From contig JAYODI010000096.1 of the NCBI GenBank assembly GCA_038279365.1, positions 1-20,527 of the forward strand: a stretch of DNA of 20,527 bases, read 5' to 3'. Positions 1 to 20,479 of the stretch are shown piece after piece (the first letter of the stretch is position 1; every line of letters starts with the position of its first letter). This stretch comes from Candidatus Latescibacterota bacterium (GTDB lineage Bacteria > Latescibacterota > UBA2968). Both the position numbers and the translations under genes were made by a program. The notes beneath the pieces are model-generated. The model saw only the letters and a program-made list of their open reading frames with translations, searched no databases and was not told where the DNA came from.

Positions 1-120
1 CCACACGAATTCCTCTGATAAGTCTTTAGACCTGTGCGTAAACATCTACAATATAAGCATACAATGAATAGGATAGTAAAGATAGAGGTTTTTTGCTTTA
101 AGTATTTGATGCCGTTTTTT

Positions 121-1980: not shown

Positions 1981-1982
1981 AA

Positions 1983-4838: not shown

Positions 4839-4863
4839 CAACGCCTCCGAACAACGATGTAGC

Positions 4864-4892
4864 AAAAAGAATGCAGAAAGATCTCTTCATTC
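4864..4892 (-). terminator. Weak terminator-like hairpin with U-tract between the 1068-aa gene and the cytochrome gene
   Basis: Minus strand reads GAATGAAGA-GATCTT-TCTGCATTC-TTTTT: a 9-bp stem with one mismatch, a 6-nt loop and 5 T. The stem is AU-rich and therefore weak. Confidence 0.3.
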
Positions 4893-4922
4893 CAATTTTA
4901 TTTTGGCCCACCCCAAACACCC

Positions 4923-7900: not shown

Positions 7901-8129
7901 CTTGCCCTGCACGCATGAGTGCCAGCCCATAATTGATCTGCTCTCGAACCGAATCAGGGGCCAAGTCGAACGCCTTTTTAAACTCGCCCACAGCCTCGTA
8001 TTGTGTTGCAGAATTTTCATAAAACGCCTTGCCCAAATTGCGATGTCGCCACAAGGCCTCATCTGTCGTTTCAGAAAACACCACCAAAGGCAAACACCAC
8101 AACACCATCAAAAACCCATACAATCTCAT
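4923..8129 (-). CDS. Exported TPR + FG-GAP + ASPIC/UnbV multidomain protein with a long C-terminal domain of unknown function
   Basis: Signal-peptide-like N-terminus (MRLYGFLMVLWCLPLVVFS). About five TPR units (TWFNLGIAYKRLSQYEKAIEQLE; THYNLGVLYKLEKKNDLAITHFAKA). FG-GAP motifs (DFDNDGAIDL, DYDHDYDLDL, DFNHDGWTDL, DFDGDGRIDL), a UnbV-like segment (PLLFGLG...VRITWPNG), then about 435 aa starting SGSCP. ATGA overlap with the upstream gene at 8126-8129. Confidence 0.85.
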   Translation of the reverse strand: MRLYGFLMVLWCLPLVVFSETTDEALWRHRNLGKAFYENSATQYEAVGEFKKAFDLAPDSVREQINYGLALMRAGQEPEGIAELEKAQKQDPSIPHTWFNLGIAYKRLSQYEKAIEQLEGMIQLVPNEAMTHYNLGVLYKLEKKNDLAITHFAKAAQLDPYLAGPHFQLATAYRQVKRMDDAKTAMETFRRIKAEQAGDAVAEDLEWSFYSEIYETIDPKHAQDTGSQAAWKFEAQTLAVNMSGFAVLDANGDLTPDLLVWSQTGGTVFLNGQTETECGLEGVVDMVSVAPSDFDNDGAIDLCVIQTSGAVLYRNVDGAFKKVDRALPQREFRSAVWLDYDHDYDLDLFLLGHASALFRNNGTAGFSDVTETFPFVDGEAVAGVQFDWVADTQGMDLAVVYANRVGVLYRDGLAGKYDAQDLPELTGSQVLAVDFNHDGWTDLVGAGDAGVVLFMNDQDAGFVVHKMANDVRGPAVFADFENRAVAELVARDGVYRNLGLGKFGGVETPAEFVTAHDWVAADFDGDGRIDLAVLDRDGAVKRLDNRTEAKHWLRVALQGVKNLALAPSAEIEVKVGRQYQKQIYRGLPLLFGLGDKDQADAVRITWPNGMIQNETRQLANQLHVYKEAQRLSGSCPMIFTWNGSEFEFITDVLGVAPLGASAGDGQYFPVDHDEYVQISGESLVPKDGLFQIRVTEELREVAFLDAVKLIAIDHRDDVDVFTNDKFKGPPFPEFRLFGVEERMYPIRALDHKGQDVLAQLTAKDKTYPDGFTRDYSGVAELHYVELDFGHVAQDGQAVMILNGWVDWADGSTFLNVGQQNPEGLIFPYLQVKNAQGDWETVIADMGLPAGKPKTISVDLSDKFLSASRQVRIVTNLCVYWDEIFLGENPSAPSVRLTEMLPQTAHLGFRGFSKVVIHPQRKQPEYFVYSDFRPFNDWNWNPTPGMYTCFGQVQTLLNQVDDLLVIMGSGDELQLAFDAEVLPELAEGWRRDYLLMVDGWAKDGDANTAFSQTVAPLPYHEMPQYPYEAPHVFPRDGIHQRYLEIYNTRPALRLIRPLYLHENRIVSKP

Positions 8130-9886
8130 CGAATAATTCCTTTACCTTCTTGGACCGTTCTGATTTTATTGGTCAATTTTTTCACGTGATCTTTTGACAA
8201 TTTTTCCACCAGGCCACTGGGCCAACGAATTTCAACAGCATCGACCTGTTGTGTTTTGCCAATGCCAAAATGCAATCGAAAGGTGCTTTGTCCAGCATAT
8301 CCATTGCCCCCATTTACTTCTCGCAAATAGGTCTCACCATCAGCCGTCAATATCACCCGAGCCCCCACAGCATTGCGATTGGATTTTGTGCCGACCAACT
8401 TCAATTCGACCCAATTTCCCGGATTAACAGGCATCCCATGAAAAAACAGCGTGGGCTGGTTGGCATTGGTCTGATAGATATCCAACATCCCATCATTATC
8501 AAAATCGCCAACCCCAATACCGCGTCCATCCAAATCATTGTCTACCCCAGCCTCAGCACCGATTTCCTTAAAACTACCATCTGCCAAATTGTGGAACATT
8601 CGCTGTTTTTGGTACCCACTCCAAGTCATTGTGCCAATATCGGGATAATTGTTCATATCTGAAAAATCAACATTGGGCGTAATAATCATCTCCAGCAGCA
8701 CAGGGATATAATTCATCTCACCCGCCGAACGCAATCCATTGACCACAAACAAATCTTCCCAACCATCGTTGTCAAAATCACCAAACTTGCCCGCCCAACC
8801 CCAATCGGTATCACACGTGCCCGTTTCACGAGACAAATCGAGAAAGGTGCCATCTCCATTGTTGTGCCACAACATGTTGCACTCTTTCATATATTCATCG
8901 GTAATATTTGTCACATAAATATCCAGCCAACCATCGCGATTGTAATCGCCCATATCCACATTCATGCCCTTGCGGGTATCAAAGCCAATCGCACTTTCTG
9001 TCACTTCTTCAAAAATGCCTGTGCCATCGGCTTTGTTAAAAAACATACGATCTGTGCCATAATCCCCGGCAATATAAACATCTTGCCAACCATCATTGTT
9101 TAAATCGGCGTGTCCCAAATCCAATGTCCACCCCGTGTGTTCAATAAAACCCGCTTTTTCCGTCATCTCTTCAAACCCACGCGTGCCATCTTTTTTCTTC
9201 ACATTGTGCCAAAACGTAACCCCACCCCCATTGATTGCATAATCGAGGTTGTTGGGCAACACATGTGGGGTATGGAGATCGAGCAAATTTTTGGGCTGAA
9301 AATAATTGCCCAACATCAAATCAAGCCACCCGTCATTGTCTGCATCAAAAGCAATCACCGCAATGGTATTGCCAAATTTTGTCAACCCAGTGGCTTTGCT
9401 CACATCTTTAAACGAATAAACACCCTTTTTATTGGGTCCATTGTTTCGATAAAGAATCGGCGTGCCAAAACGCGCCACCAACAAATCGAGATGTCCATCG
9501 TTGTTATAATCAAACCAAAGTGCATCGGCACAAATTGACAGCGGATCATTGCCACCTGCCACACCGAGTTTTTTGGCAACATCTGTAAATGTCAAATTGC
9601 CATTGTTGTGCATCAAATGGTGCGATTTTCCTTCATCAGAATCGACCACAAACAAATCGTCAAACCCATCGTTGTTATAATCACCAACCGCCACAGCCGC
9701 CCCACCATCGGTAAACATCTCCAATACTTGGGCTTTGTGTCGGGTGCCAAACTTGCGCGTTGCATGCACAAATCTAACGCCTGCTTTTTCACCTATTTCC
9801 TCAAACTTGGGAGCAGTTAACTGGGCCGATGCATTTCCGATACCCAAGAACAATCCCACAAGGGCTACTATGATCACGCGTTTCAA
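8126..9886 (-). CDS. Exported CRTAC1-family protein (FG-GAP repeats + ASPIC/UnbV domain)
   Basis: FG-GAP motifs (DYNNDGFDDL, DYNNDGHLDL, DADNDGWLDL, DLNNDGWQDV, DYNRDGWLDI, DFDNDGWEDL, DFDNDGMLDI) and a UnbV-like C-terminus (SNRNAVGARV...GNGYAGQSTFRLHFGIG...IRWPSG). Start placed at TTG 9886 (AAGGAGG at 9891-9897, TTGA overlap with upstream stop), giving signal peptide MKRVIIVALVGLFLGIGNASA. The ORF track starts at 9904. Confidence 0.88.
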   Translation of the reverse strand: MKRVIIVALVGLFLGIGNASAQLTAPKFEEIGEKAGVRFVHATRKFGTRHKAQVLEMFTDGGAAVAVGDYNNDGFDDLFVVDSDEGKSHHLMHNNGNLTFTDVAKKLGVAGGNDPLSICADALWFDYNNDGHLDLLVARFGTPILYRNNGPNKKGVYSFKDVSKATGLTKFGNTIAVIAFDADNDGWLDLMLGNYFQPKNLLDLHTPHVLPNNLDYAINGGGVTFWHNVKKKDGTRGFEEMTEKAGFIEHTGWTLDLGHADLNNDGWQDVYIAGDYGTDRMFFNKADGTGIFEEVTESAIGFDTRKGMNVDMGDYNRDGWLDIYVTNITDEYMKECNMLWHNNGDGTFLDLSRETGTCDTDWGWAGKFGDFDNDGWEDLFVVNGLRSAGEMNYIPVLLEMIITPNVDFSDMNNYPDIGTMTWSGYQKQRMFHNLADGSFKEIGAEAGVDNDLDGRGIGVGDFDNDGMLDIYQTNANQPTLFFHGMPVNPGNWVELKLVGTKSNRNAVGARVILTADGETYLREVNGGNGYAGQSTFRLHFGIGKTQQVDAVEIRWPSGLVEKLSKDHVKKLTNKIRTVQEGKGIIR

Positions 9887-10626
9887 GGCGCCTCCTTTTC
9901 CCACAAAACCGTCAAATCGGTATTCACACGTTTGCCAGGTTCAAAATGTGTTGTCAAAAACGCAGTTAAAGCCTCGTCATCTAAAGACAACCGCTTTTTC
10001 AATGCGTCATTATTGGGAAACTTTTGAATGGCATCTTGCCAAATTTCACGTGCTTTGGCCAAATCGTCTAACCGCCAATAGGCTTCGCCCAAACCGATAT
10101 AAGGACGCACGTGAACACTGAGCAATTTATCGGCCTTTTCTGAATGTACAATGGCCTGTGTCAAATCATCAATGGCCTTGGGGGTCCGGCCAAAAATAGC
10201 CGGCCAATACAAATAGCTGTTTCCCCGCGTATAACGCCCCAACCACGTATCTTCCAATGCCAAAGCGGTGCTAAAATGCCCCAACGCCGTATTGGCCAAC
10301 AAAACCTGCGTGATCGCCCCTTCAATGGGAATTTTATCTACAAAAGCATATCCATAATTCATCCACGCATTGGGTGCTTTGGGATTTTCGGCGGTCAGGT
10401 TTTCAAAAAATGCAATACACCGGTTATATGTCTCAACCTTATTCACCCCAACCACCGCCTGACGATAATCATTGCCAGTCTTCAAATCATTTGGCTTCAT
10501 TTTTAATGCCGCTTCAAATTTATCCAATGTAGCAGCAACATCAACCGCAGTTGTTTTGTCATTTTCGGCTCGTGCCATACCGACCGTTATGACCATTAAC
10601 ATCACCATATAAAACAATCTTCTCAT
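9883..10626 (-). CDS. Exported tetratricopeptide-repeat protein
   Basis: Signal peptide ending A-R-A (MRRLFYMVMLMVITVGMARA). TPR-like helices (PYIGLGEAYWRLDDLAKAREIWQDAIQKFPNN; NAWMNYGYAF). Fits exactly between two CRTAC1 genes. Confidence 0.8.
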   Translation of the reverse strand: MRRLFYMVMLMVITVGMARAENDKTTAVDVAATLDKFEAALKMKPNDLKTGNDYRQAVVGVNKVETYNRCIAFFENLTAENPKAPNAWMNYGYAFVDKIPIEGAITQVLLANTALGHFSTALALEDTWLGRYTRGNSYLYWPAIFGRTPKAIDDLTQAIVHSEKADKLLSVHVRPYIGLGEAYWRLDDLAKAREIWQDAIQKFPNNDALKKRLSLDDEALTAFLTTHFEPGKRVNTDLTVLWEKEAP

Positions 10627-10641
10627 ACCTTATTCATCTCC

Positions 10642-12375
10642 CTATTTATTTCCATTTTTGGGTTTAAACGGTTTCAAGGTTTTTTTACCTTCTGTCATGC
10701 GATAGATCTGGTTGGATGAGATATTTTTAAATGTTTGTTTTTTACCCGAAGGCCATACCACCTCAACCGCTTCGACCAACGCCACATCACCCAGCCCAAA
10801 ATGAACCCGCATCGTGCTTTGGCTTGCAAACCCATTTCCCCCATTGACAAATCCCACATGCCGTTGTCCATTTGCCAAAACCCACACCCGAGTACCCACC
10901 GGTGAAGCATGGCCAGCCTCCAACACAAACTGTATCCAGTGGTTGTTGGTCGGTTGCACATTTTGAAACAAAAACCCTTTGGCATTGGCATTAGACACAT
11001 ACATATCGAGCCGACCATCATTGTCAAAATCAGCAACCGCCACACCGCGGCCATCCAGCTTAGAATTGACGCCGTGGCGTTTGGCCTCATTTTTGAACAA
11101 ACCACCTTGGTTGTGAAACAAACAATTTTCTTGATATCCACTCAGCGTTTTATCGCCCATTGGGGGCCAATTGCGCGCATCAGACAAATCGATATTGGGC
11201 TGTACAATCAATTCAAAAATATCCACCACATAATTGGCCTTGCCCCCAGACACCCAACCATTTACCACATACAAATCTTGCCAACCATCGTTGTCATAAT
11301 CAAAAAATTTGCCTGCCCAGCCCCAACCTGTGTCAAATGTGCCCGTTTCACGCGACACATCGGCAAATGTGCCATCGCCATTGTTTTGCCACAAAAAATT
11401 ACCTTCGCGCATGTATTCATCTGTAATGTTGGTCACAAACATGTCGAAGAGTCCATCGTTGTTGAAATCACCCCAATCGGCATTCATACCCTTTTTGGTA
11501 TCAATACCAATCGCCTCCTTTGTCACATCGACAAAGGTGCCATTGCCAGTGTTTATAAAAAAGCGATCTGTGCCAAAATCGGCCGCAACATACAAATCTT
11601 CATCGCCATCGTGATCCACATCGGCATGGCCCAAATCCAATGTCCACCCCGACAACTGCAAACCGGCCTTTTCGGTCACGTCTTCGAAGATGCCGCCATT
11701 GTTGCGATAGAGCATCACACCGCCACCATTATTGGCTGTTTCAAAACTTTCGGGGAAAAAATTGGGCGTAGACGGATTGAACAAATCAACCGGTTGAAAA
11801 TAATTGCCCAAAACCAAATCTTGATCCCCGTCCAAATCGTAATCAAATGCAATGGCCACAATACTATTGAGATACGGAATACCCAAACCCACCTTTTTGG
11901 TCACGTCTTGAAACGTACCATCGCCTCGGTTTTCATACAAAATATTGTGACCAAAACGAAGCACCAACAAATCGGGTCTTCGATCGCCATTATAATCAAA
12001 CCACAAGGCATTGGCCGATGCATTGGTCGCATCGTTGCCATTTGACACACCTGCTTTTTCACCCACCTCGACAAAGGTAAAGTTGCCATTGTTGCGATAC
12101 AGTTTATTTTTGCCCGTCTCTTTCGAATCGGTCAAAAACAAATCTTCAAATCCATCCCCGTCATAATCGGCCACAGCAACCGAAGCCCCCAAAGCCGTAT
12201 ACCCTTCCATGATGCTGCCATAAACATTGTTGAACGACCGATTGTTATGTTTAAAATCGATCCCTGCTTTGGCGGCAACATCTTGAAACCAGGCTGTTTC
12301 TTCGGCATGGGAGGTGCCAACAATGACCCACCCAACCGCCATCAACACAATCATCCAAAACCTAGTGATGCCCAT
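10642..12375 (-). CDS. Exported CRTAC1-family protein (FG-GAP repeats + ASPIC/UnbV domain)
   Basis: FG-GAP motifs (DYDGDGFEDL, DYNGDRRPDL, DYDLDGDQDL, DVDHDGDEDL, DFNNDGLFDM, DYDNDGWQDL, DFDNDGRLDM) and a UnbV-like C-terminus (GNGFASQSTMRVHFGLG...VVWPSG). Start placed at ATG 12375, 4 nt after the upstream stop, giving a signal peptide ending TSHA. The ORF track starts at 12417. Confidence 0.88.
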   Translation of the reverse strand: MGITRFWMIVLMAVGWVIVGTSHAEETAWFQDVAAKAGIDFKHNNRSFNNVYGSIMEGYTALGASVAVADYDGDGFEDLFLTDSKETGKNKLYRNNGNFTFVEVGEKAGVSNGNDATNASANALWFDYNGDRRPDLLVLRFGHNILYENRGDGTFQDVTKKVGLGIPYLNSIVAIAFDYDLDGDQDLVLGNYFQPVDLFNPSTPNFFPESFETANNGGGVMLYRNNGGIFEDVTEKAGLQLSGWTLDLGHADVDHDGDEDLYVAADFGTDRFFINTGNGTFVDVTKEAIGIDTKKGMNADWGDFNNDGLFDMFVTNITDEYMREGNFLWQNNGDGTFADVSRETGTFDTGWGWAGKFFDYDNDGWQDLYVVNGWVSGGKANYVVDIFELIVQPNIDLSDARNWPPMGDKTLSGYQENCLFHNQGGLFKNEAKRHGVNSKLDGRGVAVADFDNDGRLDMYVSNANAKGFLFQNVQPTNNHWIQFVLEAGHASPVGTRVWVLANGQRHVGFVNGGNGFASQSTMRVHFGLGDVALVEAVEVVWPSGKKQTFKNISSNQIYRMTEGKKTLKPFKPKNGNK

Positions 12376-12379
12376 ACCT

Positions 12380-14812
12380 TTACCCTTCTGCACCGTCAAT
12401 TCGATACACTTTTTCAATCAATTCATTTTGGCTTTCTTTAATTTCATAAAGTTTGTTGGGCGCCACATTTTCAAAGCGCTGTTCAATGCCCGAACGCGGC
12501 CAACGCACAATGATCTCATCAATGCCATCATGCTCACCCAACCCAAAGTGCAACCGCAATGTGCTTTGGGCACCATATCCATCGCCCAAAATCACCTCAC
12601 GCAGCAATTGCATCTGACCCGATTTTAAAATCACACGTGCACCCACCCCGTCGCGATTGCTGCCCTTTTCAATCTCACTTGCAGCACCCACCAACTTAAA
12701 CTGCACCCAATTGCCACTGGATGCAATCTCATTGCGCAACAGCGCATGACGCGCCGTTGAGGCTGCAACCGCCAAATCCATTACCCCACGATTCCAAAAG
12801 TCGGCCACGGCGGTGCCACGGCTATTGAGCTCCAAATCGGCACCATAACCCCGCCCGATCTCTTTGAATGTGCCATCGCCGTTGTTACGCAAATAACGAT
12901 TGCGCTCCCAACCATGCCATGAACGCGAACCAAAATAGTTGGGATCAAACAAATAACCCGTTTTGTAAAGCTTTTGTTCACTCACCACATTGTTCAAAAA
13001 ATCCAGTTCAATCTCTGTGCCTTTTTCATTGTAAACCCACCCATTGGCCGCATACAAATCTTGCCACCCATCATTGTCAAAATCCACCATATTGGTGCCC
13101 CAAAACCAACCCGGAGGATTGGCATTGGCATGCCATGTCACATCTTCAAATGTGCCATCACCTTTGTTGCGCAACAGCGTATTGCCCGAAGCCATATCTT
13201 GAAAAACTTGCACAAACTGAAAACCTGATTGCTGTAATATTTGAAAATAAAGTGGCATATCCGTTATCCACACACCTTGCCGCCACGAATTGACCATATA
13301 TCGCAACACCGTTGGCCACTCGGCAAACCAACCTTCTTCAGAGCGAATGTGCGCTACATAAAAATCCAAATGCCCATCATTGTCATAATCGCCAATGGTT
13401 GAACTCATTCCGGCACCATAGGCCAATGTACCCGTCTCCACCGTCACATCATCAAATGTGCCATCGCCATTGTTTTTATACAGCGTTTTGCGACCAAAGT
13501 CATTCGACACATACAAGTCGGGATACCCATCGTCATTATAATCGCCAAATGCTGTGCCCAAACACAACCCCACTTCACCCACACCGGCTTCTTCTGTCAC
13601 ATTGGTAAACGTGCCATCACCATTGTTTTTATACAGCTGATTTGGCTGGCCATTACGCGCATAAAACGTAGTGGGAATCTGCTCGCGAGGTTCCAAATAA
13701 CGCCCCACATACAAATCGAGAAATCCGTCGTTGTTATAATCGGCCCAAGAAGCCACCGTCGTACAATTGTCAGGATCAATGCCCGATTGGGCCGTCACAT
13801 CGACATAACGATCGCCACGTTTTTCAAACAACTGATTGGGTTCAAACGTGCGACTCACAAAAAAGTCTTGATCGCCATCATTGTCATAATCGGCAAACAG
13901 CCCCACACTCACACCACTCAGGTTCGACAACCCCACCGATGCCGTCACATCGTCAAACTGTCCATTGCCCAAATTGCGAAACAACCGTGATGCCACACCG
14001 TCGGGCACAAACAAATCGCAAAACCCATCACCGTCATAATCGGCCGCCGTGATGCCCGCCGGACCATATCGCAACATGCCAAACTTGAGCTCTTGCGTGA
14101 GAAATTCAGGATAATATTCATTTTTAAAGTCAATGCCCGTAGCGGGTGCCACATCCACAAAAAGGGGACGAGAATTAATCACCCGATCACCTTCTATCAA
14201 TTCCACCTGTTGAATGAGATAGGAGGCTTCGTCATTGCGATCAAAATGTACCCGAAAAAGGGCCCGATCAATGCCCGCTTGCATCTCGCCTTTGGGTGTG
14301 CCAATTAATTCAAAACGCACAGTGGCCACCACATTGTCCGAGCCTTGCCAGTCTTCCAAACGATGAATGTAGAGCCCCACTTCTTCTATCGATTCAAACC
14401 CTTCCAAATAATCTCGCCACTGGGCAAGTGCAGCTTGTGGATGAGATATTTCACCGCCTGCTTGAAAGGCATAAATGCGCACCCCATCGCGATCATCTGT
14501 CAGTTTAAGATCATTGAGCCCCAGTGCGCGCCCTTTAAATGACGGTGCATAAAGGGATTCAACCGTGGCCAAATCGCGAGTTTGCATGGCCTTGGCCATT
14601 TTGCTCAACGTCACAACAGCTTCGCGTCCCGTATGAAAAAAGGCCCACCCCACCCGATCGATATAACTCACCGTAGCCCAATAAATCAAAAACAAAACAA
14701 CCGCCGCCCCTCCCAACCACCACTTGCGCGACAATTTTTTGCGAGTCGGTTCTGAACCATTCACATTTGCATTTTTCTCAGACCCTTGTGTGGGTTTTGT
14801 CGTTTCTGCCAT
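12380..14812 (-). CDS. Membrane-anchored CRTAC1-family protein with an extra N-terminal domain (possible SnoaL/NTF2-like fold)
   Basis: Basic stretch followed by a TM helix (RKKLSRKWWLGGAAVVLFLIYWATV), an insert of about 150 aa, FG-GAP motifs (DYDGDGFCDL, DYDNDGDQDF, DYNNDGFLDL, DYNDDGYPDL, DYDNDGHLDF, DFDNDGWQDL) and a UnbV-like C-terminus (SNRDGVGARV...LRLHFGLG...VRWPRSG). AAGGTG lies upstream of ATG 14812. Confidence 0.87.
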   Translation of the reverse strand: MAETTKPTQGSEKNANVNGSEPTRKKLSRKWWLGGAAVVLFLIYWATVSYIDRVGWAFFHTGREAVVTLSKMAKAMQTRDLATVESLYAPSFKGRALGLNDLKLTDDRDGVRIYAFQAGGEISHPQAALAQWRDYLEGFESIEEVGLYIHRLEDWQGSDNVVATVRFELIGTPKGEMQAGIDRALFRVHFDRNDEASYLIQQVELIEGDRVINSRPLFVDVAPATGIDFKNEYYPEFLTQELKFGMLRYGPAGITAADYDGDGFCDLFVPDGVASRLFRNLGNGQFDDVTASVGLSNLSGVSVGLFADYDNDGDQDFFVSRTFEPNQLFEKRGDRYVDVTAQSGIDPDNCTTVASWADYNNDGFLDLYVGRYLEPREQIPTTFYARNGQPNQLYKNNGDGTFTNVTEEAGVGEVGLCLGTAFGDYNDDGYPDLYVSNDFGRKTLYKNNGDGTFDDVTVETGTLAYGAGMSSTIGDYDNDGHLDFYVAHIRSEEGWFAEWPTVLRYMVNSWRQGVWITDMPLYFQILQQSGFQFVQVFQDMASGNTLLRNKGDGTFEDVTWHANANPPGWFWGTNMVDFDNDGWQDLYAANGWVYNEKGTEIELDFLNNVVSEQKLYKTGYLFDPNYFGSRSWHGWERNRYLRNNGDGTFKEIGRGYGADLELNSRGTAVADFWNRGVMDLAVAASTARHALLRNEIASSGNWVQFKLVGAASEIEKGSNRDGVGARVILKSGQMQLLREVILGDGYGAQSTLRLHFGLGEHDGIDEIIVRWPRSGIEQRFENVAPNKLYEIKESQNELIEKVYRIDGAEG

Positions 14813-14881: not shown

Positions 14882-16399
14882 TTAAGACCGTGTGGCAGGA
14901 GGTGTCACACTCATACCCGAGGTCACGGCTTTGGCCACTTGCATGGCCGACACAATCACAGGCGTAATGCCCCCACCCGGTTGTGTCCAATGCCCTGTAA
15001 AAAAGAGGTTTTTTATAGGGCCTGTAATGCCCACACGGTGCTCACCAAGCTGATCGGGTGACATTTCCCAACCCAGCATGGCCCCTTGATAATTGCGTGT
15101 AAAACGATAGGATGTCTGCGCCGATGCACTCAACTTCACCACCATCTTTTGTTGAATACCCGGAACAATTTTTTCCAAATGATCCAAAATATAACGCTCA
15201 ACAGACGCCTTATGTGATGCCCAATCGGTCACTTTGTAATAATCCATATCCAGCACCTTTTGAATGATCATCACATGCCCACCCTTGGGTGCCATTTGAG
15301 GTTCAAAAAGCGTGGGGATAAAAATCTTAAACTTGAGCCCGTTTTGCGCCAACAAATTTGGATCCCATTCATTCCAATAATACCCCTGTATGTCATAAAG
15401 CGTTTTTGTCGGTACATCTTTTAAACCGATGTGCGTTAAAAAACAGGGGTGGGTGGGTCGCAACGAGCGTATATGGCGCACATAAGCAGGATCGACTTGG
15501 TCGCCATCCAACATATTTTCTAAAGTCTGCAATAAGTCGGCATTCGAAACGACCACAGGCGTTTGAACGCGTTTGGTAAAACGGTGTTGTTTGGGACCTG
15601 TTTCAATTTCAACACCACATACCCGATCCTTTTCAGATAGGATTTTTACAACACCAGACTGCATCAAAATATGGCCGCCACGCGCTTCGAAACACCGAGC
15701 CAACTCGTCGGCAAAAACCTGAGACCCACCAACGGGATAATAGTTGCCCAAAAAATACGATAGCCGAAGCATCGAATCAAAAACAAAAGACGTGCGATTA
15801 GGCGGAGAACCCCAATGCGGGCCATCGGCAACAAGAAGCAATTTGAGTTTTGGGTCTTCAAAATGTGTGTCGAGCACTTGGTCGACTGTGAGATTGCGAT
15901 AAGGATCGAGACGCGGCGTATCACGCCCGCGAAAAAAATAGAGCAAACCCAGTCGATAGGTTTCATTGACAACTTTGAAAAATCGATCCAGCGCAGATGC
16001 TTCTTTAGGGAATTCGGCTTTGAGTTTGGCAATATAGGTATCAAAATCGGCGGGTACTGAAAACTGGGAACCATCGGGAAATCGAAAATGGTCAACCGGA
16101 TCCATCTTGACCCAGTCTGTTGTCACACCCAATTCTCTAAGGAGTGTGCCAGTAATAGAAGAGGGATTGCCTAAGAGAGGATAAAAGTGGCTGGCCGCAT
16201 CAAACGTATATCCTTTGCGGCGAAAGGTGCTGCAATAACCACCAACGACATAATGTTGTTCCACCAAGAGCACATGCAAACCGCTTTTGGCAAGCAAATT
16301 GGCACACGTCAACCCACCAATGCCTGCACCAATGACCACCGCATCATACCGATCATTTGGCCCTTCGCGAAGTCGAAGCCCCTTGAAAGCGCGTTTCAT
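14882..16399 (-). CDS. FAD/NAD(P)-dependent oxidoreductase, phytoene desaturase (CrtI)/carotenoid isomerase/retinol saturase family
   Basis: N-terminal dinucleotide-binding motif (YDAVVIGAGIGG...LLVEQHYVVGGYCSTFRRKGYTFDAA), mid-protein YYPVGGSQVFADEL and VVSNAD, and C-terminal IKNLFFTGHWTQPGGGI. ATGA overlap with the upstream gene at 16396-16399. No export signal. Confidence 0.85.
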   Translation of the reverse strand: MKRAFKGLRLREGPNDRYDAVVIGAGIGGLTCANLLAKSGLHVLLVEQHYVVGGYCSTFRRKGYTFDAASHFYPLLGNPSSITGTLLRELGVTTDWVKMDPVDHFRFPDGSQFSVPADFDTYIAKLKAEFPKEASALDRFFKVVNETYRLGLLYFFRGRDTPRLDPYRNLTVDQVLDTHFEDPKLKLLLVADGPHWGSPPNRTSFVFDSMLRLSYFLGNYYPVGGSQVFADELARCFEARGGHILMQSGVVKILSEKDRVCGVEIETGPKQHRFTKRVQTPVVVSNADLLQTLENMLDGDQVDPAYVRHIRSLRPTHPCFLTHIGLKDVPTKTLYDIQGYYWNEWDPNLLAQNGLKFKIFIPTLFEPQMAPKGGHVMIIQKVLDMDYYKVTDWASHKASVERYILDHLEKIVPGIQQKMVVKLSASAQTSYRFTRNYQGAMLGWEMSPDQLGEHRVGITGPIKNLFFTGHWTQPGGGITPVIVSAMQVAKAVTSGMSVTPPATRS

Positions 16400-17607
16400 A
16401 CCGTCTTATTTTCTTGGGGAGGGTTGCGCCCATAACTTTCGTGTGCCGCAACAAACTCACCACTGGCAATCGCCGCACCCATAGACAACTCACCCGCCAA
16501 GAGTGTGGCCGCAATAATTTCTGCAAATTTGGGAGCATGGCCGGCTCCAAAACAACCCAACATCTCCAAGCATTCTCGGCTGCTGCCCAACCCCGTGCCC
16601 CCCCCAACCGTGGCCACCGTAAGCGATGGCAAAGTCACACTGGCATACAAATCACCGTCATCTGTCAATTCAAAACTTGTAATGCCCACAGACGCATTGA
16701 CCACATTGGCAACATCTTGACCACAGGCAATAAACAACGCCGTGAGACCATTGGCATAATGGCCGTTGTAACCCATTGCATTGGCCTGAATATGCCCCAA
16801 CACCGTATGACGCCACACCTTGCACAAATCTTGTGGTGTGGTGTGCAAATACATACGTACCTGCCGAGCAGACAACAAAGCACCTGCCACAACTTTTTTG
16901 CCCTTACCGCCTGCAAACAAAAACCCACTGGCTCGTTTTTCAGAATTGAGACCACTAAAAATAAAAAAGTCCGTTGCTTTGCTGTTTTCCAATAACCATT
17001 GGCAGGCACAATCTGCCGCCTTCATAATCATGTTCATACCCTGGGCATCGGCTGTATAAAAACAAAAATTCACCTGTACTTCTCGCCCGACAGGATAACA
17101 TTCAACCCGCAACAACTTGCCGTAACGGGTGGTAGACTCTGCCAAACTTTTCAATTGCTCAAAATCGTTTTGTAACTGTTGTGCAAAAACATGCGCTTCG
17201 GCAACGGTATCAAAAACAAACACAGGTGCAATGCGATTTTCATCTTGATAAATATGTGCAGAAACCCCACCACAGCGCGTTAAAAGCACCATGCCACGCT
17301 CATATGAACGCACCAGCGCACCTTCTGTGGTGGCCAAAGGCACATAAAAAGTACCCTGAGCATGGTCACCATTCACCTTGAGTGGCCCTGCCAGGCCAAC
17401 AGGCATTTGCACCGCCCCAATCGGATTTTCAATATTGCCCCGCATCGCCTCGGTGGGAATGCTACAATTGGCAATATATGGCAAAGAAACACCTGTTTTT
17501 TGTTCGACCCAATTGCGGCGAAACGTGACGTCTTCCAAAGTATAACCCTGCGCCATCATACGAGGCACCAAATCGCCCATCTTGGTTTTTTTTGCTTCGG
17601 TAGACAA
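16396..17607 (-). CDS. Class I (NADPH-type) hydroxymethylglutaryl-CoA reductase-like protein
   Basis: HMGR signatures: NIENPIG, PLATTEGALV (catalytic Glu), STTRYG, DAQGMNM, ACGQDVANV (catalytic Asp), TVGGGT, LAGELS and AAH (catalytic His). TTG start with AGGAG at 17614-17618. Confidence 0.88.
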   Translation of the reverse strand: MSTEAKKTKMGDLVPRMMAQGYTLEDVTFRRNWVEQKTGVSLPYIANCSIPTEAMRGNIENPIGAVQMPVGLAGPLKVNGDHAQGTFYVPLATTEGALVRSYERGMVLLTRCGGVSAHIYQDENRIAPVFVFDTVAEAHVFAQQLQNDFEQLKSLAESTTRYGKLLRVECYPVGREVQVNFCFYTADAQGMNMIMKAADCACQWLLENSKATDFFIFSGLNSEKRASGFLFAGGKGKKVVAGALLSARQVRMYLHTTPQDLCKVWRHTVLGHIQANAMGYNGHYANGLTALFIACGQDVANVVNASVGITSFELTDDGDLYASVTLPSLTVATVGGGTGLGSSRECLEMLGCFGAGHAPKFAEIIAATLLAGELSMGAAIASGEFVAAHESYGRNPPQENKTV

Positions 17608-17682: not shown

Positions 17683-18891
17683 TTAAACTTTTGAAAGCAC
17701 AAGCGCGCACATATTGCCATCAAGTCCAAATGACAAGATCAAGCCATTTTGCATCGGTAGGGTGCAATTTTCTTTTTTTGCCATTGGCAAATGCAAACCG
17801 TCTTCCAATGTGTTCAACCCACAAATGCCTGGCAACACACCTTGATGCATATGTTCAAGTAACGCACCCGTTTGCAACGCACCCGATGCCCCCAACGTTT
17901 CGCCCAACGCCGACTTGATTGCCGTAATGGGCAAGGATGCCGTTTGATCTCCAAACATAGCGGCAATCGCTTCGGCCTCACACCGATCTCCCATGGGGCT
18001 GCCACAAGCCGATGCACTGATGCAATCAATGTCTTCAGGATTTAACTGGGCATGAGCCAATGCGGCACGAATGGCCATGCCCATCGCTGCGCATAATTTG
18101 TCGGCATTTTGACCCCGATTCGGATCAAAAGCGGTGCCGTATCCTTTAATCTCGCCAATAATTGAGGCCCCTCGCAGATGTGCCTGCTCAGCATCTTCCA
18201 ACATTAAAAATGCAGCCCCTTCTCCTAAAATCAACCCCGTTCGACCCGCATCAAAGGGCACAGCCGTTTCGACCCGGCTGCTCAACAATTTGGCCCGCTC
18301 AAAACCAAATAACGCTTCAAAACACAACTCTTCGGCACCACCGGCCAACAACATAGAAATACGCCCACTTTTGATCAAATCGGAAGCATAACCTATGGCC
18401 TGTAACCCCGAACTGGCACCTGTGGACAAGGTCGAATTAAGACCACGAAGGTTGTGCCAAATAGCCGTTTGTCCCGTTGCTGCATTGATCACCGTATTGG
18501 CAAAATCAAGCGGTTTAACAAAACGAGGCCCTCGCGTAATGGCCATTTGATCAAATGCCCCAATGGTGTGTACACTGCTAAACACAGTTCCCAAAACGAT
18601 GCCCACATCCTGTTCGGCACGCATCTCAGGTGTCCAGTTGCTGTCTTTAAGCGCCAACTGTGCCGCACTTGCCGCCAACTGAGCAATGCGATCCAATGGG
18701 CGCAAGTTTACATCGCCCAAATAATGACGCGCATTAAAATTAGGCACTTCACCGCCCATGTGCTGCGTTTCAAAAAACCCAATGGAACCCAAACCACATT
18801 GCCCCGCACACAAAGCTTTGTGTAACGTATCTGCTTGATCAGACAAAGAAGAAATGATGCCTTTTCCTGTAATCACCACGCGTTGTGACAT
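17683..18891 (-). CDS. Catalytically inactive beta-ketoacyl synthase homolog (chain-length-factor-like subunit)
   Basis: KAS fold motifs are present (RVVITG, LAGGAEE, PFD, GEGAAFLMLE, IKGYG, LSFGLDGN). The triad positions read Ala (18415-18417), Ser (18010-18012) and Glu (17899-17901) instead of Cys/His/His. Start placed at ATG 18891, 1 nt after the upstream TAA; the ORF track starts at 18921. Confidence 0.85.
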   Translation of the reverse strand: MSQRVVITGKGIISSLSDQADTLHKALCAGQCGLGSIGFFETQHMGGEVPNFNARHYLGDVNLRPLDRIAQLAASAAQLALKDSNWTPEMRAEQDVGIVLGTVFSSVHTIGAFDQMAITRGPRFVKPLDFANTVINAATGQTAIWHNLRGLNSTLSTGASSGLQAIGYASDLIKSGRISMLLAGGAEELCFEALFGFERAKLLSSRVETAVPFDAGRTGLILGEGAAFLMLEDAEQAHLRGASIIGEIKGYGTAFDPNRGQNADKLCAAMGMAIRAALAHAQLNPEDIDCISASACGSPMGDRCEAEAIAAMFGDQTASLPITAIKSALGETLGASGALQTGALLEHMHQGVLPGICGLNTLEDGLHLPMAKKENCTLPMQNGLILSFGLDGNMCALVLSKV

Positions 18892-18892
18892 A

Positions 18893-20116
18893 TTAAGGTG
18901 AATCCTTAAATTTTTTGACAATCAACGACGCATTCACCCCACCAAAAGCATACGCATTGTTCATCGCAGCAAATACTTTGTGGTCACGAGCTTCATTGGG
19001 CACACAATCTAAATCACACTCAGGATCGGGTTCTTCCAAATTGATTGTGGGTGGAATTCGGTCTGTGTAGGCCGCCAAAGCGCACACCGCTGTTTCAATG
19101 GCTGAAGCGGCTCCCATTGTATGCCCCAACATCGACTTGATTGAACTGATGGGCACTTGCCCAGAACGATTGCCAAACACCTTTTTGACTGCCCGTGTTT
19201 CGTGCATATCGTTGGTCGGTGTGCCTGTACCATGTGCGCTAATATAGCTGATCTCTTCTCTTTTTACACCGCTTTCAAAAAGCGCATTTTCCATTGCCTT
19301 AACCGACCCTGCCTCTTCGGGATGCCCACCCGTCATATGAAAAGCATCACACGACAGCCCATAACCCGCAATTTCGGCATAAATGCGGGCATTGCGCGCC
19401 AAGGCACGTTCCAAAGGTTCCAACACCAAAACACCTGCACCTTCGGCAGGAATCATACCCTTTCGGTTTTTGTCAAACGGCTGACACCGTTCAGGTGCAA
19501 TCGCTTTGAGCTGGGCAAAACCAGAGTAGGTGATGCGCGAAAACGAATCGGCCCCACCCGCCAATGCCAAATCGGCCTGCCCCAAACGCAACATATCAAA
19601 CGCATGAGAAATGGCATAAGTACCTGCTGCACAGGCCGCCGGGATCATGGTATTGCGTCCCATAAACTGCAATTCGGCAGCCATATAAGCAGCAATATGA
19701 TGACATGGATAAAGGGTAAGCATCTCATCACCTGTCGCCTGAAGGTTGTCAGCGACAAAATGATCATCAAACTGTTCAATCTGATTGGGTTCACCCGATG
19801 TGGTTCCCATAGAGATGGCCGCCCGAGTCAAATCGAGCGTGCTCACATCTACTTGGGCATCTTGCAAAGCAAGTTTTGCGGCTGCAATGCCCAGCTGTGA
19901 TGTTCGCCCAATCTTTTGTGCCTCAAGCGTTTGAACATAAGTGGCAGGTGAAAAAGCCTTAACCTCGCCCCCAACATGCACCGCATAATTGCTGGTATCA
20001 AACGATTCGACAGGGCTGATGCCACTTTGACCCTTGAGCAAAGCCGACCAAAAGTCTTGGCACCCAGTACCAATAGAGGTAAAAACACCAATGCCTGTAA
20101 TAACAACACGTTTCAT
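18893..20116 (-). CDS. Beta-ketoacyl-ACP synthase, FabF/KAS II family (probable type II PKS/FAS ketosynthase)
   Basis: MKRVVITGIG start and an intact triad: PAACAAG (Cys 19631-19633), ISAHGTGT and KSMLGHTMGAA. Also PPTINL and NNAYAFGGVNA. ATG 20116 with GAGGT at 20122-20126; the ORF track starts at 20128. Confidence 0.92.
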   Translation of the reverse strand: MKRVVITGIGVFTSIGTGCQDFWSALLKGQSGISPVESFDTSNYAVHVGGEVKAFSPATYVQTLEAQKIGRTSQLGIAAAKLALQDAQVDVSTLDLTRAAISMGTTSGEPNQIEQFDDHFVADNLQATGDEMLTLYPCHHIAAYMAAELQFMGRNTMIPAACAAGTYAISHAFDMLRLGQADLALAGGADSFSRITYSGFAQLKAIAPERCQPFDKNRKGMIPAEGAGVLVLEPLERALARNARIYAEIAGYGLSCDAFHMTGGHPEEAGSVKAMENALFESGVKREEISYISAHGTGTPTNDMHETRAVKKVFGNRSGQVPISSIKSMLGHTMGAASAIETAVCALAAYTDRIPPTINLEEPDPECDLDCVPNEARDHKVFAAMNNAYAFGGVNASLIVKKFKDSP

Positions 20117-20131
20117 CTCTAACCTCAAATT

Positions 20132-20380
20132 CTATTTCGCAGCCAAATATTTCTGAACCAAATCGACAGAGTCCTGAAGCGTTTTTATGTTGGCAAATTC
20201 TTCTTCGGGCACGATCAAATCAAATTCACTTTCCAAATCAACAGAAATTTCAAGCATCGTCAAAGAATCCAAACCCAAATCATCCTTATAGGACGCTTTG
20301 TCGCCAATTTGACTGGGGTCAATATTGGCAGCATTTGAAATAAACCCTTTAATTTGGTTTCTAATTTCTTCCGAATCCAT
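20132..20380 (-). CDS. Acyl carrier protein
   Basis: 82-aa acidic protein with the phosphopantetheine motif DLGLDSL and a typical LESEFDL.VPEEE..NIKTLQD tail. ATG 20380 with AAGGAG at 20388-20393. The 33-aa extension in the ORF track lies upstream of this RBS and reads as AT-rich non-coding sequence. Confidence 0.93.
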   Translation of the reverse strand: MDSEEIRNQIKGFISNAANIDPSQIGDKASYKDDLGLDSLTMLEISVDLESEFDLIVPEEEFANIKTLQDSVDLVQKYLAAK

Positions 20381-20451: not shown

Positions 20452-20479
20452 AAATTAAAAGAACAAAAAAATAGGTCAA
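20452..20479 (-). promoter_or_regulatory. Putative sigma70-type promoter for the cluster
   Basis: TTGACC (20479-20474), a 16-nt spacer and TAATTT (20457-20452) in the AT-rich region upstream of the ACP gene. A perfect TTGACA also lies at 20515-20510 but has no good -10. Confidence 0.35.

Follow-up and report, generated by a model that had tools for sequence, protein, structure and literature searches.

NADPH-dependent release of carrier-bound thioesters as aldehydes or alcohols is carried out by SDR-type terminal reductase domains, such as CAR, FAR, the 'R' domains of NRPS/PKS systems and ElbD of Myxococcus. An acyl-thioester reductase of a different origin was biochemically characterised in 2025, when FcrA, a class-I HMG-CoA reductase (HMGR) homolog found in Natronomonas pharaonis and Ca. 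Promineifilum breve (Pb-FcrA), was described as an HMGR-derived fatty acyl-CoA reductase (Grossi et al., PMC11948995). According to that report, FcrA uses NADPH to convert acyl-CoA of C14 and longer to the alcohol, leaves HMG-CoA unreduced and is insensitive to simvastatin; ACP-fused forms of the FcrA type were already reported, and the pocket changes given are Ser684 to Glu, Lys735 to a small residue and Leu862 to a bulky aromatic residue (PMC11948995). In human HMGR, HMG is contacted by R590, S684, D690, K692 and K735 (PMC9500038).

The other system to be considered is the anammox 'ladderane Cluster I', described as comprising amxACP, amxFabZ, amxFabF2, amxFabFmut, a phytoene-dehydrogenase homolog and a B12 radical-SAM protein (bioRxiv 10.64898/2026.05.19.726425). 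Literature searches for HMG-CoA reductase in connection with a ketosynthase, an ACP and a chain length factor returned nothing on the cassette described below, and those joining ladderane with HMG-CoA reductase returned nothing relevant. The genome-mining papers found record 'ladderane' clusters outside the anammox phylum but do not analyse them.

Gene content of the locus

The window, meaning the whole 20,527-nt stretch analysed here, derives from a Candidatus Latescibacterota bacterium (GCA_038279365.1, contig JAYODI010000096.1), and the genes discussed all lie on its minus strand. The HMGR-like gene (P0001, 16396..17607) encodes 403 residues from a TTG start, with AGGAG 6 nt on its 5' side. 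Upstream are genes for a chain length factor (CLF)-like inactive ketosynthase (17683..18921, with the N and C Ketoacyl-synt domains), an active FabF-like ketosynthase (KS; 18893..20128) and an acyl carrier protein (ACP; 20132..20380). Downstream is a flavoenzyme of the CrtI/phytoene-desaturase family (14882..16399, with Amino_oxidase and NAD_binding_8 domains, referred to as PDH), whose first 4 nt are shared with the 3' end of the HMGR-like gene. A preliminary description made from the DNA alone had placed an HMGR homolog at 16396..17607 beside KS, CLF and ACP genes; the ORF exists, and its neighbours were identified as such by Pfam.

The conserved order of the cassette is ACP, KS, inactive CLF-like KS, HMGR and CrtI-like flavoenzyme. 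In 83 loci with 65-93% identity, which are kin picked by similarity to the query and are not independent of one another, CLF was found upstream of the HMGR-like gene in 64/68, KS in 51/52 and ACP in 37/40, while PDH was found downstream in 64/66 and was adjacent in 58. In four salt-marsh metatranscriptome runs, contigs of at least 99% identity cover the ACP, KS, CLF, HMGR and PDH genes. They span the ACP/KS, KS/CLF and HMGR/PDH junctions; carry-over of DNA into these RNA libraries is possible.

The active KS has the triad C166, H299 and H336, which is intact in 47/47 homologs. In the CLF-like KS, the Cys-His-His triad is Ser/Ser/Glu; none of 57 homologs has the catalytic Cys, the first His is Ser in 52 and the second His is Glu in 56. 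The two proteins are closest in the PDB to chains B and C of 9s5h, respectively (477.5 and 257.2 bits, the next matches being 328.4 and 180.4 bits), an entry that is presumably the anammox amxFabF2/amxFabFmut heterodimer, the main text of the preprint giving no PDB code. Both in anammox Cluster I and in the window, one operon combines an ACP gene with genes for an active and a triad-less KS and for a CrtI-family flavoenzyme. Unlike Cluster I, the window has no FabZ, and neither its 12 ORFs nor the 12 in the adjoining 19 kb (L097) include a radical-SAM gene; the window cassette has the HMGR-like reductase instead. The likeness between the phytoene-dehydrogenase homolog of Cluster I and the CrtI-family gene adjoining the HMGR-like gene is by family only. 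The latter protein scored 162.5 bits against crtI_fam, under the cut-off of 238.1, and 82.1 and 79.2 bits against PDB 4rep and 4dgk.

The ACP comprises 82 residues (ATG at 20380; PP-binding, 41.3 bits). The listed ORF extends to a TTG at 20479, and a 95% identical 82-residue ORF in another locus (L014) starts at the same Met. D38, S39 and L40, including the serine of the DSL motif, are invariant in 33 ACPs. The best PDB match was a mitochondrial ACP at 53 bits, with PDB 7auf, which we take to be anammox-related, below it at 34.2 bits; the cassette ACP bears no special likeness to the anammox ACP.

Beyond PDH, Pfam assigned seven further ORFs on the same strand (121..14812). These encode four FG-GAP/UnbV_ASPIC proteins (12380-14812, 10642-12417, 8126-9904 and 121-1986), a small TPR protein (9883-10626), a TPR and FG-GAP protein (4923-8129) and a cytochrome-c554-like/TPR protein (1983-4865). 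By eye, several of the seven have signal-peptide-like N-termini. FG-GAP homologs occur in 29/44 related loci with at least 3 kb downstream.

Family and pocket residues of the HMGR-like protein

The HMGR-like protein matches PF00368 with 362.8 bits over residues 28-394 and profile positions 3-368 of 368, corresponding to a full-length domain. It scored 319.5 bits against PDB 6hr7 and 185.6 bits against human HMGR, and members of its clade are 384-448 residues long. An AlphaFold2 monomer from a 34-sequence alignment was poor (mean pLDDT 47.9, pTM 0.35). The protein shares the domain, the catalytic tetrad and the NADPH motifs with canonical class-I HMGR (human 1DQ8; Methanothermococcus 6HR7). E95, K224, D298 and H389 correspond to human Glu559, Lys691, Asp767 and His866, and each is present in 122/122 clade members. 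The motifs start at residues 93 (TTEG), 187 (DAQGMN), 218 (SGLNSEKR), 296 (GQD), 335 (GGGT) and 387 (AAHES).

By contrast with this conserved machinery, R590, S684, D690, K692, K735 and L862 of canonical HMGR are all altered, whereas 8/8 canonical-type representatives have R, S, D, K, K and L at these positions. By HMMER alignment, human R590 (1dq8/2q1l) falls on I126 within the segment ENRIAP (residues 123-128, codons 125-126 being 17230-17235), and D690/K691/K692 on E223/K224/R225. K735 falls on H267 (codon 16807-16809) and S740 on H272. The K735 region is gap-sensitive: the 6hr7 alignment moves the gap and His267 may lie beside the Lys position, with no Lys either way. By ungapped MAFFT alignment, F217 and not S218 is the counterpart of S684, S218 being aligned with it under another gap placement. 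These alignments bear out what the preliminary description had read by eye, namely that the catalytic Glu, Lys, Asp and His and the NADPH motifs are kept, while GMTRGP has become ENRIAP, NYCTDKK has become LNSEKR and KNLVGS has become HTVLGH, a His taking, subject to the gap placement above, the place of the carboxylate-binding Lys.

Throughout the clade, the R590 column contains Val (74) or Ile (48 of 122), and the S684 column contains Phe (121) or Leu (1), with Glu or Asp in none. In the K735 column the four commonest residues, which leave 9 others, are His (79), Arg (20), Gln (11) and Asn (3), with no Lys among these four. E223 and H272 are present in 122/122, as is Phe385 at the L862 position. 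The clade signature reads N124-R125-I/V126, F217-S218-G219, E223-K224-R225, T268, H272 and F385. Because the same replacements recur across the 122 clade members, we judge from the alignments that they are not due to chance, and that ORF 16396..17607 is a genuine class-I HMGR-domain relative in which the residues that hold HMG have been lost. The pocket has not merely turned hydrophobic: R125, R225, T268, the invariant H272 and H267 (or R/Q) leave it polar and cationic in character. The substrate may therefore have a polar group instead of being a simple fatty chain.

The relationship to FcrA was examined with FastTree (SH-like supports) and fast IQ-TREE (SH-aLRT). In a tree rooted on the 8 canonical-type sequences, in which sequences fitting the published FcrA signature stand in for the published ones, the HMGR-like protein was placed in group A, separate from group B, the FcrA-type group (FastTree supports of 0.98 and 0.91, SH-aLRT of 96.5 and 85.9, respectively). 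Group B, the E/D-G-N group, contains Trp-type sequences of ~510 residues fitting the published FcrA signature. The HMGR-like protein has in common with FcrA the class-I HMGR fold, the catalytic Glu/Lys/Asp/His, the loss of Lys735 and a bulky aromatic residue at the Leu862 position (Phe in 81 and Trp in 7 of 90 FcrA-type proteins). In addition, the host genomes of both are without a mevalonate pathway, and a four-electron thioester reduction would be expected of both.

On the other hand, the S684 column, which is Phe or Leu in the HMGR-like clade, is Glu (61) or Asp (18) in the 90 sequences of group B. The small residue that replaces Lys735 in FcrA is mostly His, Arg, Gln or Asn in the gap-sensitive column of the clade, and the Arg kept at the R590 position by 81/90 FcrA-type proteins is replaced by Val or Ile. 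Arg100, Glu103 and His272 are invariant in the clade and unique to it in comparison with the FcrA type. FcrA also has an N-terminal Lad domain, while the domain of the HMGR-like protein starts at residue 28 of 403, with neither a Lad domain nor a fused ACP, and the gene context is wax synthase for FcrA and ACP/KS/CLF for the HMGR-like gene. Judged from the tree and these residues, the clade is a sister lineage to the FcrA type and not FcrA in the strict sense. The preliminary description had proposed a new type of reductive chain-release enzyme that would yield a fatty or polyene alcohol or aldehyde. An acyl-thioester reductase is well supported by the kept tetrad, the rebuilt HMG pocket and the synteny with ACP, KS and CLF, but the claim of a new type has to be withdrawn, FcrA having been characterised already in 2025 (PMC11948995).

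Alternative reactions and substrates

The strong PF00368 match, together with the public annotation of relatives as 'hydroxymethylglutaryl-CoA reductase (NADPH)', a name given to hundreds of such genes, would be accounted for by an ordinary, merely divergent HMGR that makes mevalonate. However, the protein scored 348.9 bits against NCBIfam TIGR00533, under the equivalog cut-off of 441.8, the HMG carboxylate contacts are replaced across 122 relatives, and the constant partners of the gene are ACP, KS and CLF. The Pfam scan of the window ORFs gave no other mevalonate gene, in agreement with the preliminary description, which had also called for a search of the genome for HMG-CoA synthase and mevalonate kinase. 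In the genome, which is 98.5% complete and has one PF00368 gene, none of the following was found above cut-off: HMG-CoA synthase (best match 29.2 bits against 360.35), mevalonate kinase (94.2 against 163.05) and the decarboxylase of the pathway (20.8 against 171.35). DXR of the MEP route was present (451.7 bits). The 94-bit ORF lies on contig C41 and was not accepted as a mevalonate kinase, its match to a heptose-phosphate (sugar) kinase being better at 161.4 bits. All three other cassette-bearing genomes searched likewise had no HMG-CoA synthase above cut-off, DXR and a single PF00368 gene each. These results support the view that the HMGR-like protein is not an HMGR of the mevalonate pathway, and a role in making mevalonate is hardly credible.

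An FcrA-like acyl-CoA reductase deserves more weight, although we consider it unlikely. Here the chain would leave the ACP and become a CoA thioester, by release and re-activation or by transfer, before its reduction to an alcohol that is used for wax esters or ether lipids. S101 and R104 of the HMGR-like protein correspond to human S565 and R568, which we take to be CoA contacts, and are preserved. A PlsC-like (SDR-like/PlsC-like) acyltransferase is encoded further downstream in the cluster. The sole characterised HMGR-derived reductase uses acyl-CoA and not acyl-ACP, and Grossi et al. tie FcrA-type genes to ether lipids (PMC11948995). Against a passage through CoA, the conserved five-gene core, in the window and in related loci, contains no thioesterase or acyl-CoA ligase, nor is there an acyltransferase between ACP/KS/CLF and the reductase; the clade also lies outside the FcrA-type group and has neither the S684-to-Glu change nor the Lad domain. 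HMGR chemistry can run in both directions, and among the class-II enzymes there are degradative ones; the enzyme might accordingly halt at the aldehyde in a two-electron release, or oxidatively load an aldehyde or alcohol on CoA or ACP as a KS starter, possibly supplied by an RPE65-type oxygenase. Genes for an RPE65 oxygenase and an aldehyde dehydrogenase are in fact found on the adjoining contig, and RPE65 also in two other loci (L083 and L088). Nevertheless, the two genes are 14-19 kb away and outside the five-gene core, and the class-I enzymes, like FcrA, act reductively and depend on NADPH, the product of FcrA being an alcohol (PMC11948995). We regard a role in aldehyde release or starter loading as quite improbable.

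Proposed role of the cassette

Taking the alignments and gene contexts together, the HMGR-like gene probably encodes an NADPH-dependent acyl-thioester reductase of the HMGR fold that makes no mevalonate and acts inside a five-gene lipid cassette. Most likely, the enzyme would make an alcohol from a fatty chain built for the purpose, in a lipid operon that is widespread and unstudied. We infer rather than observe the direction of the reaction, its four-electron stoichiometry, the use of ACP as carrier, what chain is made and where the product goes. Malonyl units would be loaded onto ACP, and the active KS, with the inactive CLF-like KS as its partner, would prime and elongate the chain. Ketoreduction and dehydration would be borrowed, either from the housekeeping FAS II or from the hotdog dehydratases that some versions of the cluster carry, and the CrtI-like flavoenzyme may alter the saturation pattern of the chain. 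Glu95, Lys224, Asp298 and His389 would then reduce the thioester twice, via a bound hemithioacetal/aldehyde, to the primary alcohol, with the pantetheine thiol being freed. The carrier would most likely be the cassette's own ACP, and the reaction would therefore amount to reductive chain release. The alcohol would probably be handed to the downstream SDR-like/PlsC-like acyltransferase for an envelope lipid.

Direct use of a carrier protein is consistent with the wider family. Among 20 representatives scanned, AMP-binding, PP-binding and HMGR domains are fused in P0151, P0215 and P0254, PP-binding and HMGR in P0142, and the HMGR domain is joined to ACBP in P0191 and to hotdog domains in P0125 and P0133. 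HMGR-fold domains therefore occur behind carrier proteins, and the A-T-HMGR fusions mirror the A-T-R layout of SDR-type reductases. The role of these SDR-type enzymes is the same as that proposed for the HMGR-like protein, but their fold and catalytic residues are unrelated. A more specific version of this proposal is a tentative one, to which we give less than even chances: the HMGR-fold enzyme would off-load the ACP-bound chain of a KS/CLF system of the ladderane-cluster type, giving an unusual desaturated and possibly oxygenated or halogenated lipid alcohol, from which the SDR/PlsC-like enzyme would build an envelope lipid beside exported FG-GAP/ASPIC proteins. If this is true, direct off-loading from ACP by the HMGR fold would be a way of chain release new to type-II FAS/PKS, and the cassette would give tractable access, outside anammox bacteria, to the early steps that it shares with the unsolved ladderane pathway.

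For the family, the label 'HMG-CoA reductase (NADPH)' wrongly suggests that Acidobacteriota, Latescibacterota, Poribacteria and Zixibacteria use a mevalonate pathway. The clade would extend HMGR-derived reductases from acyl-CoA and wax-ester metabolism to a biosynthetic cassette centred on a carrier protein and, if ACP is the substrate, would provide reductive chain release with a further route that is independent of SDR enzymes. As the KS/CLF core is shared with the unsolved anammox ladderane cluster, and as the cassette is abundant in soils and sediments, its product is likely to be an unrecognised class of bacterial lipid.

Gene layout and the mevalonate pathway

The window corresponds to the entire contig C107 (20,527 bases) of a 6.03 Mb bin of 199 contigs (98.5% complete, 7.4% contamination). 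Every long ORF lies on the minus strand. When these were annotated with Pfam and NCBIfam, the order of transcription was an acyl carrier protein (ACP, 20132-20380), a FabF-like ketosynthase (KS, 18893-20128), a second ketosynthase-fold protein (17683-18921), the HMGR-like reductase of 403 aa (16396-17607; PF00368, 362.8 bits, residues 28-394) and a flavoenzyme of the CrtI/phytoene-desaturase family (14882-16399), whose start overlaps the reductase stop by 4 nt. The coordinates of the reductase in the preliminary description were correct, since AGGAG stands 6 nt before the TTG start at 17607. Seven more ORFs follow the flavoenzyme (121-14812): four FG-GAP/UnbV_ASPIC proteins, one TPR protein with FG-GAP, one small TPR protein and one cytochrome-c554-like/TPR protein. 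The last of these, lying amid the FG-GAP genes (1983-4865), is a 960-aa protein with a cytochrome c554/c-prime-like segment (29.1 bits) and C-terminal TPR repeats.

Concerning the mevalonate pathway, the reductase scored 348.9 bits, short of the 441.8 bits that NCBIfam requires of an HMGR equivalog, and is the only PF00368 gene of its genome. HMG-CoA synthase and mevalonate kinase, for which a genome check had been proposed, both stayed below cut-off in this genome (best matches 29.2 bits against 360.35 and 94.2 bits against 163.05, respectively), as did diphosphomevalonate decarboxylase (20.8 against 171.35). The ORF with 94.2 bits was ruled out as a mevalonate kinase, as a model for heptose-phosphate kinase matched it at 161.4 bits. 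On the other hand, DXR of the MEP route was found at 451.7 bits. Judged from its gene content, the genome is predicted to be devoid of a mevalonate pathway. We also examined three further cassette-bearing genomes, namely one bin of the same genus and one MAG each from Poribacteria and Thermoanaerobaculia. HMG-CoA synthase exceeded the cut-off in none of the three, and each harbours DXR (435-483 bits) and one PF00368 gene.

HMG-pocket residues and relationship to FcrA

All motifs named in the preliminary description were found in the reductase, and HMMER and MAFFT alignments bore out its claim that HMG-binding segments are altered while catalytic residues are kept. Using HMMER alignments to solved HMGRs, the catalytic residues of human HMGR were found to correspond to Glu95 (E559), Lys224 (K691), Asp298 (D767) and His389 (H866). 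Roles in the human enzyme are given for Arg590, Ser684, Asp690, Lys691, Lys692 and Asn755, and Lys735 forms a salt bridge to the HMG carboxylate, in PMC9500038. In the reductase, R590 is replaced by I126 (an Arg sits one position before, at R125), D690 by E223, K692 by R225, K735 by H267, S740 by H272 and L862 by F385. The K735 equivalence is gap-sensitive, the gap shifting by one residue in the alignment with 6hr7, and Ser684 corresponds to Phe217, not Ser218, in the ungapped MAFFT alignment. Whichever gap placement is taken, the HMG carboxylate contacts are gone.

A word-indexed search returned at least 120 homologues (67-93% identity, 384-448 aa), and the named sources among those listed were Latescibacteria, Acidobacteria, Pyrinomonadaceae and Zixibacteria. 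An exhaustive search gave 3,504 proteins at E≤0.001. We aligned 121 sequences, including the query, with 134 of the best 150 representatives at 50% identity; the other 16, with fewer than 331 residues aligned, were left out. Counts for the clade of query-like sequences cover 122 sequences, the homologue P0122 among them. E223, K224, H272, F385, R100 and E103 were each present in 122/122. The R590 column held Val in 74 and Ile in 48, and the S684 column Phe in 121 and Leu in one. At K735, the four commonest residues were His (79), Arg (20), Gln (11) and Asn (3), with no Lys among those, and 9 further residues beyond these. The eight canonical-type representatives carried R, S, D, K, K and L at R590, S684, D690, K692, K735 and L862 without exception. 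These pocket substitutions define a clade. Polar residues are conserved in the rebuilt pocket (R125, R225, H267 or Arg/Gln, T268 and H272), which is predicted to be not simply greasy. Because of this polarity, the substrate chain may carry an oxygen function or be short.

Reduction of acyl thioesters by an HMGR homologue has a precedent. According to Grossi et al. 2025 (PMC11948995), FcrA, a class-I HMGR homologue, converts acyl-CoA of at least C14 to the alcohol with NADPH, does not reduce HMG-CoA and is not inhibited by simvastatin. It retains the catalytic tetrad, and differs from HMGR in Glu at Ser684, a small residue at Lys735 (printed 'Lys795') and Trp or another bulky residue at Leu862. 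In many cases FcrA is fused to an ACP or has an alkyl-binding domain at its N-terminus, and most bacterial 'class-I HMGRs' form a monophyletic clade of FcrA and putative FcrA in genomes without the mevalonate pathway (PMC11948995). The principle behind the proposal of a new type of reductive enzyme was therefore already published; the proposal named the right kind of enzyme, but its principle was not novel.

A FastTree phylogeny (LG+gamma) was built from 159 sequences, comprising all 134 representatives and 25 of the 121 sequences of the clade, of which five were selected and 20 drawn at random, and rooted on the eight canonical-type sequences. The clade together with P0122 had a support of 1.00. 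A wider group A (0.98) added P0123, P0163 and a number of 'R-S-N' type proteins that are likewise without Arg590. Its sister group B (0.91) consisted of FcrA-type proteins, recognised by the published signature as the published FcrA sequences lie outside the set, with the Arg kept, Glu/Asp at 684 and Phe/Trp at 862. A fast IQ-TREE of 83 sequences gave the same picture (SH-aLRT 94.9, 96.5 and 85.9). Alignment and tree, the check suggested at the outset, showed that the HMG contacts are replaced across the clade, which stands apart from the canonical type. FcrA and the clade share an aromatic residue at 862, one of the three pocket changes of FcrA. In contrast to FcrA, the clade has lost Lys735 in a different manner, and has neither Glu at 684 nor the N-terminal domain. 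From sequence, we regard the clade as a lineage sister to the FcrA reductases described in 2025, found in a ladderane-cluster-like operon of ACP, KS, CLF and flavoenzyme.

Conservation, continuation and distribution of the cassette

We scored 83 related loci by tblastn with the window proteins, three from genome contigs and 80 that ranked highest among 437 confirmed matches in metagenomes; being kin (65-93% identical to the query), they are not independent. Among loci with enough flank, a CLF-like gene, coding for the inactive partner of the active KS, lay within 700 nt upstream of the reductase in 64 of 68 (not found in L045, L077, L086 and L091), KS upstream in 51/52, and a same-strand ACP in 37/40 (not found in L027, L072 and L085; placed after the flavoenzyme in L080 and L090). 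The flavoenzyme was downstream in 64/66 (not found in L045 and L064) and adjacent in 58. The reductase-flavoenzyme gap was about 1.5 kb in L034, L042, L062, L065, L076 and L081; a gene of about 350 aa containing sigma-70 region 4 lies within it in L062 (7397-8446) and L076 (4465-5571).

Cys-His-His was retained in 47/47 homologues of the active KS. Among 57 homologues of its partner, none had the Cys, the first His was Ser in 52 and the second Glu in 56. The best PDB matches were 9s5h chain B for the KS (477.5 bits against 328.4 for FabF) and chain C for its partner (257.2 against 180.4). We infer that 9s5h is the amxFabF2/amxFabFmut heterodimer of anammox ladderane Cluster I, as the main text of bioRxiv 10.64898/2026.05.19.726425 gives no PDB code. 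That source describes Cluster I as ACP, FabZ, two FabFs, a phytoene-dehydrogenase homologue and a B12 radical-SAM enzyme. Unlike Cluster I, the 12 ORFs of the window and 12 of the adjoining contig include an HMGR-like gene and no radical-SAM gene. A hotdog dehydratase, absent from the window, lies directly upstream of ACP in the Poribacteria locus (L015 1149-1535, FabA-like) and in L089 (6678-7118, MaoC-like); the only FabA-like match of the window's genome is on contig C196.

Contig C169 ends in 55 nt (57278-57332, stretch L097) that are identical to window positions 1-55, and the cluster runs on into C169. There, on the same strand, follow in order a 553-aa protein with a PlsC-type acyltransferase domain, two ABC1 kinases, a ParA-like ATPase, four proteins without family, a flavin-halogenase-like protein, an RPE65-type oxygenase, an MBL-fold protein and an aldehyde dehydrogenase. 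The N-terminal ~315 residues of the 553-aa protein weakly matched extended-SDR 'Epimerase' profiles (19.4-26.8 bits, three orthologues), and a language-model lead read them as an SDR with high confidence. In a flank scan of 18 related loci, the acyltransferase was present in eight and ABC1 in six; the Poribacteria locus has both. RPE65-type, carotenoid-cleavage-like oxygenases and a Trp-halogenase-like flavoprotein also occur near the cassette in L083 (14398-16989), L088 (14489-15925) and L096 (9335-11086). Their recurrence may point to a product that is polyene-like or halogenated.

Exported-looking FG-GAP/UnbV_ASPIC (CRTAC1-like) and TPR proteins trail the lipid cassette in several phyla (window 121-14812, minus strand; L015 7200-12419; L026 12752-17678). 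Where the flank was long enough, 29 of 44 loci had FG-GAP homologues. Homologues about 30% identical to the cytochrome/TPR protein adjoin the cassette in L079 and L088.

Contigs from four salt-marsh metatranscriptome runs covered all five core genes at ≥99% identity and spanned the ACP/KS, KS/CLF and HMGR/PDH (flavoenzyme) junctions, although DNA carry-over is possible. At 18897, in the KS/CLF overlap, contigs of three runs have A against G in the window, probably a strain variant. Among 168 genomes of the phylum, from 49 genera, two genomes of one genus had the reductase gene at E≤1e-50; of the nearest relatives, 2 of 41 had it. Such patchiness, seen beside an identity of 65-70% to copies from Acidobacteria and Poribacteria, is consistent with the cassette having spread horizontally.

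Proposed reaction and the wider HMGR-fold family

In the pathway we propose, the KS/CLF pair would build a chain on ACP and the flavoenzyme would alter its saturation. The HMGR-like enzyme would then reduce the thioester to a primary alcohol in two NADPH-dependent steps via Glu95, Lys224, Asp298 and His389, releasing the chain, and the SDR/PlsC-like enzyme would take up the product. We consider it rather probable that the protein is a thioester-to-alcohol reductase serving the cassette. If so, ACP and CoA have roughly even odds of being the carrier; direct action on the cassette ACP is plausible because HMGR-fold domains occur fused behind carrier domains.

Pfam scans of 20 representatives revealed AMP-binding and PP-binding domains before the HMGR-fold domain in P0151, P0215 and P0254, which mirrors the A-T-R organisation of carboxylic acid reductases, and PP-binding alone in P0142. 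Fusions to ACBP (P0191) and hotdog domains (P0125, P0133) were also present, as were others to APH/EcKL kinases, DUF3419, receiver (response-regulator type) and PilZ domains; some AMP-binding/PP-binding fusions in the P0124-P0259 set also bear the APH/EcKL kinase. The canonical HMG-binding signature was found in only 8 of 134 representatives. The HMGR-fold family is a large, mostly unstudied radiation, and its fusions show putative reductases of acyl groups bound to pantetheine carriers in some lineages.
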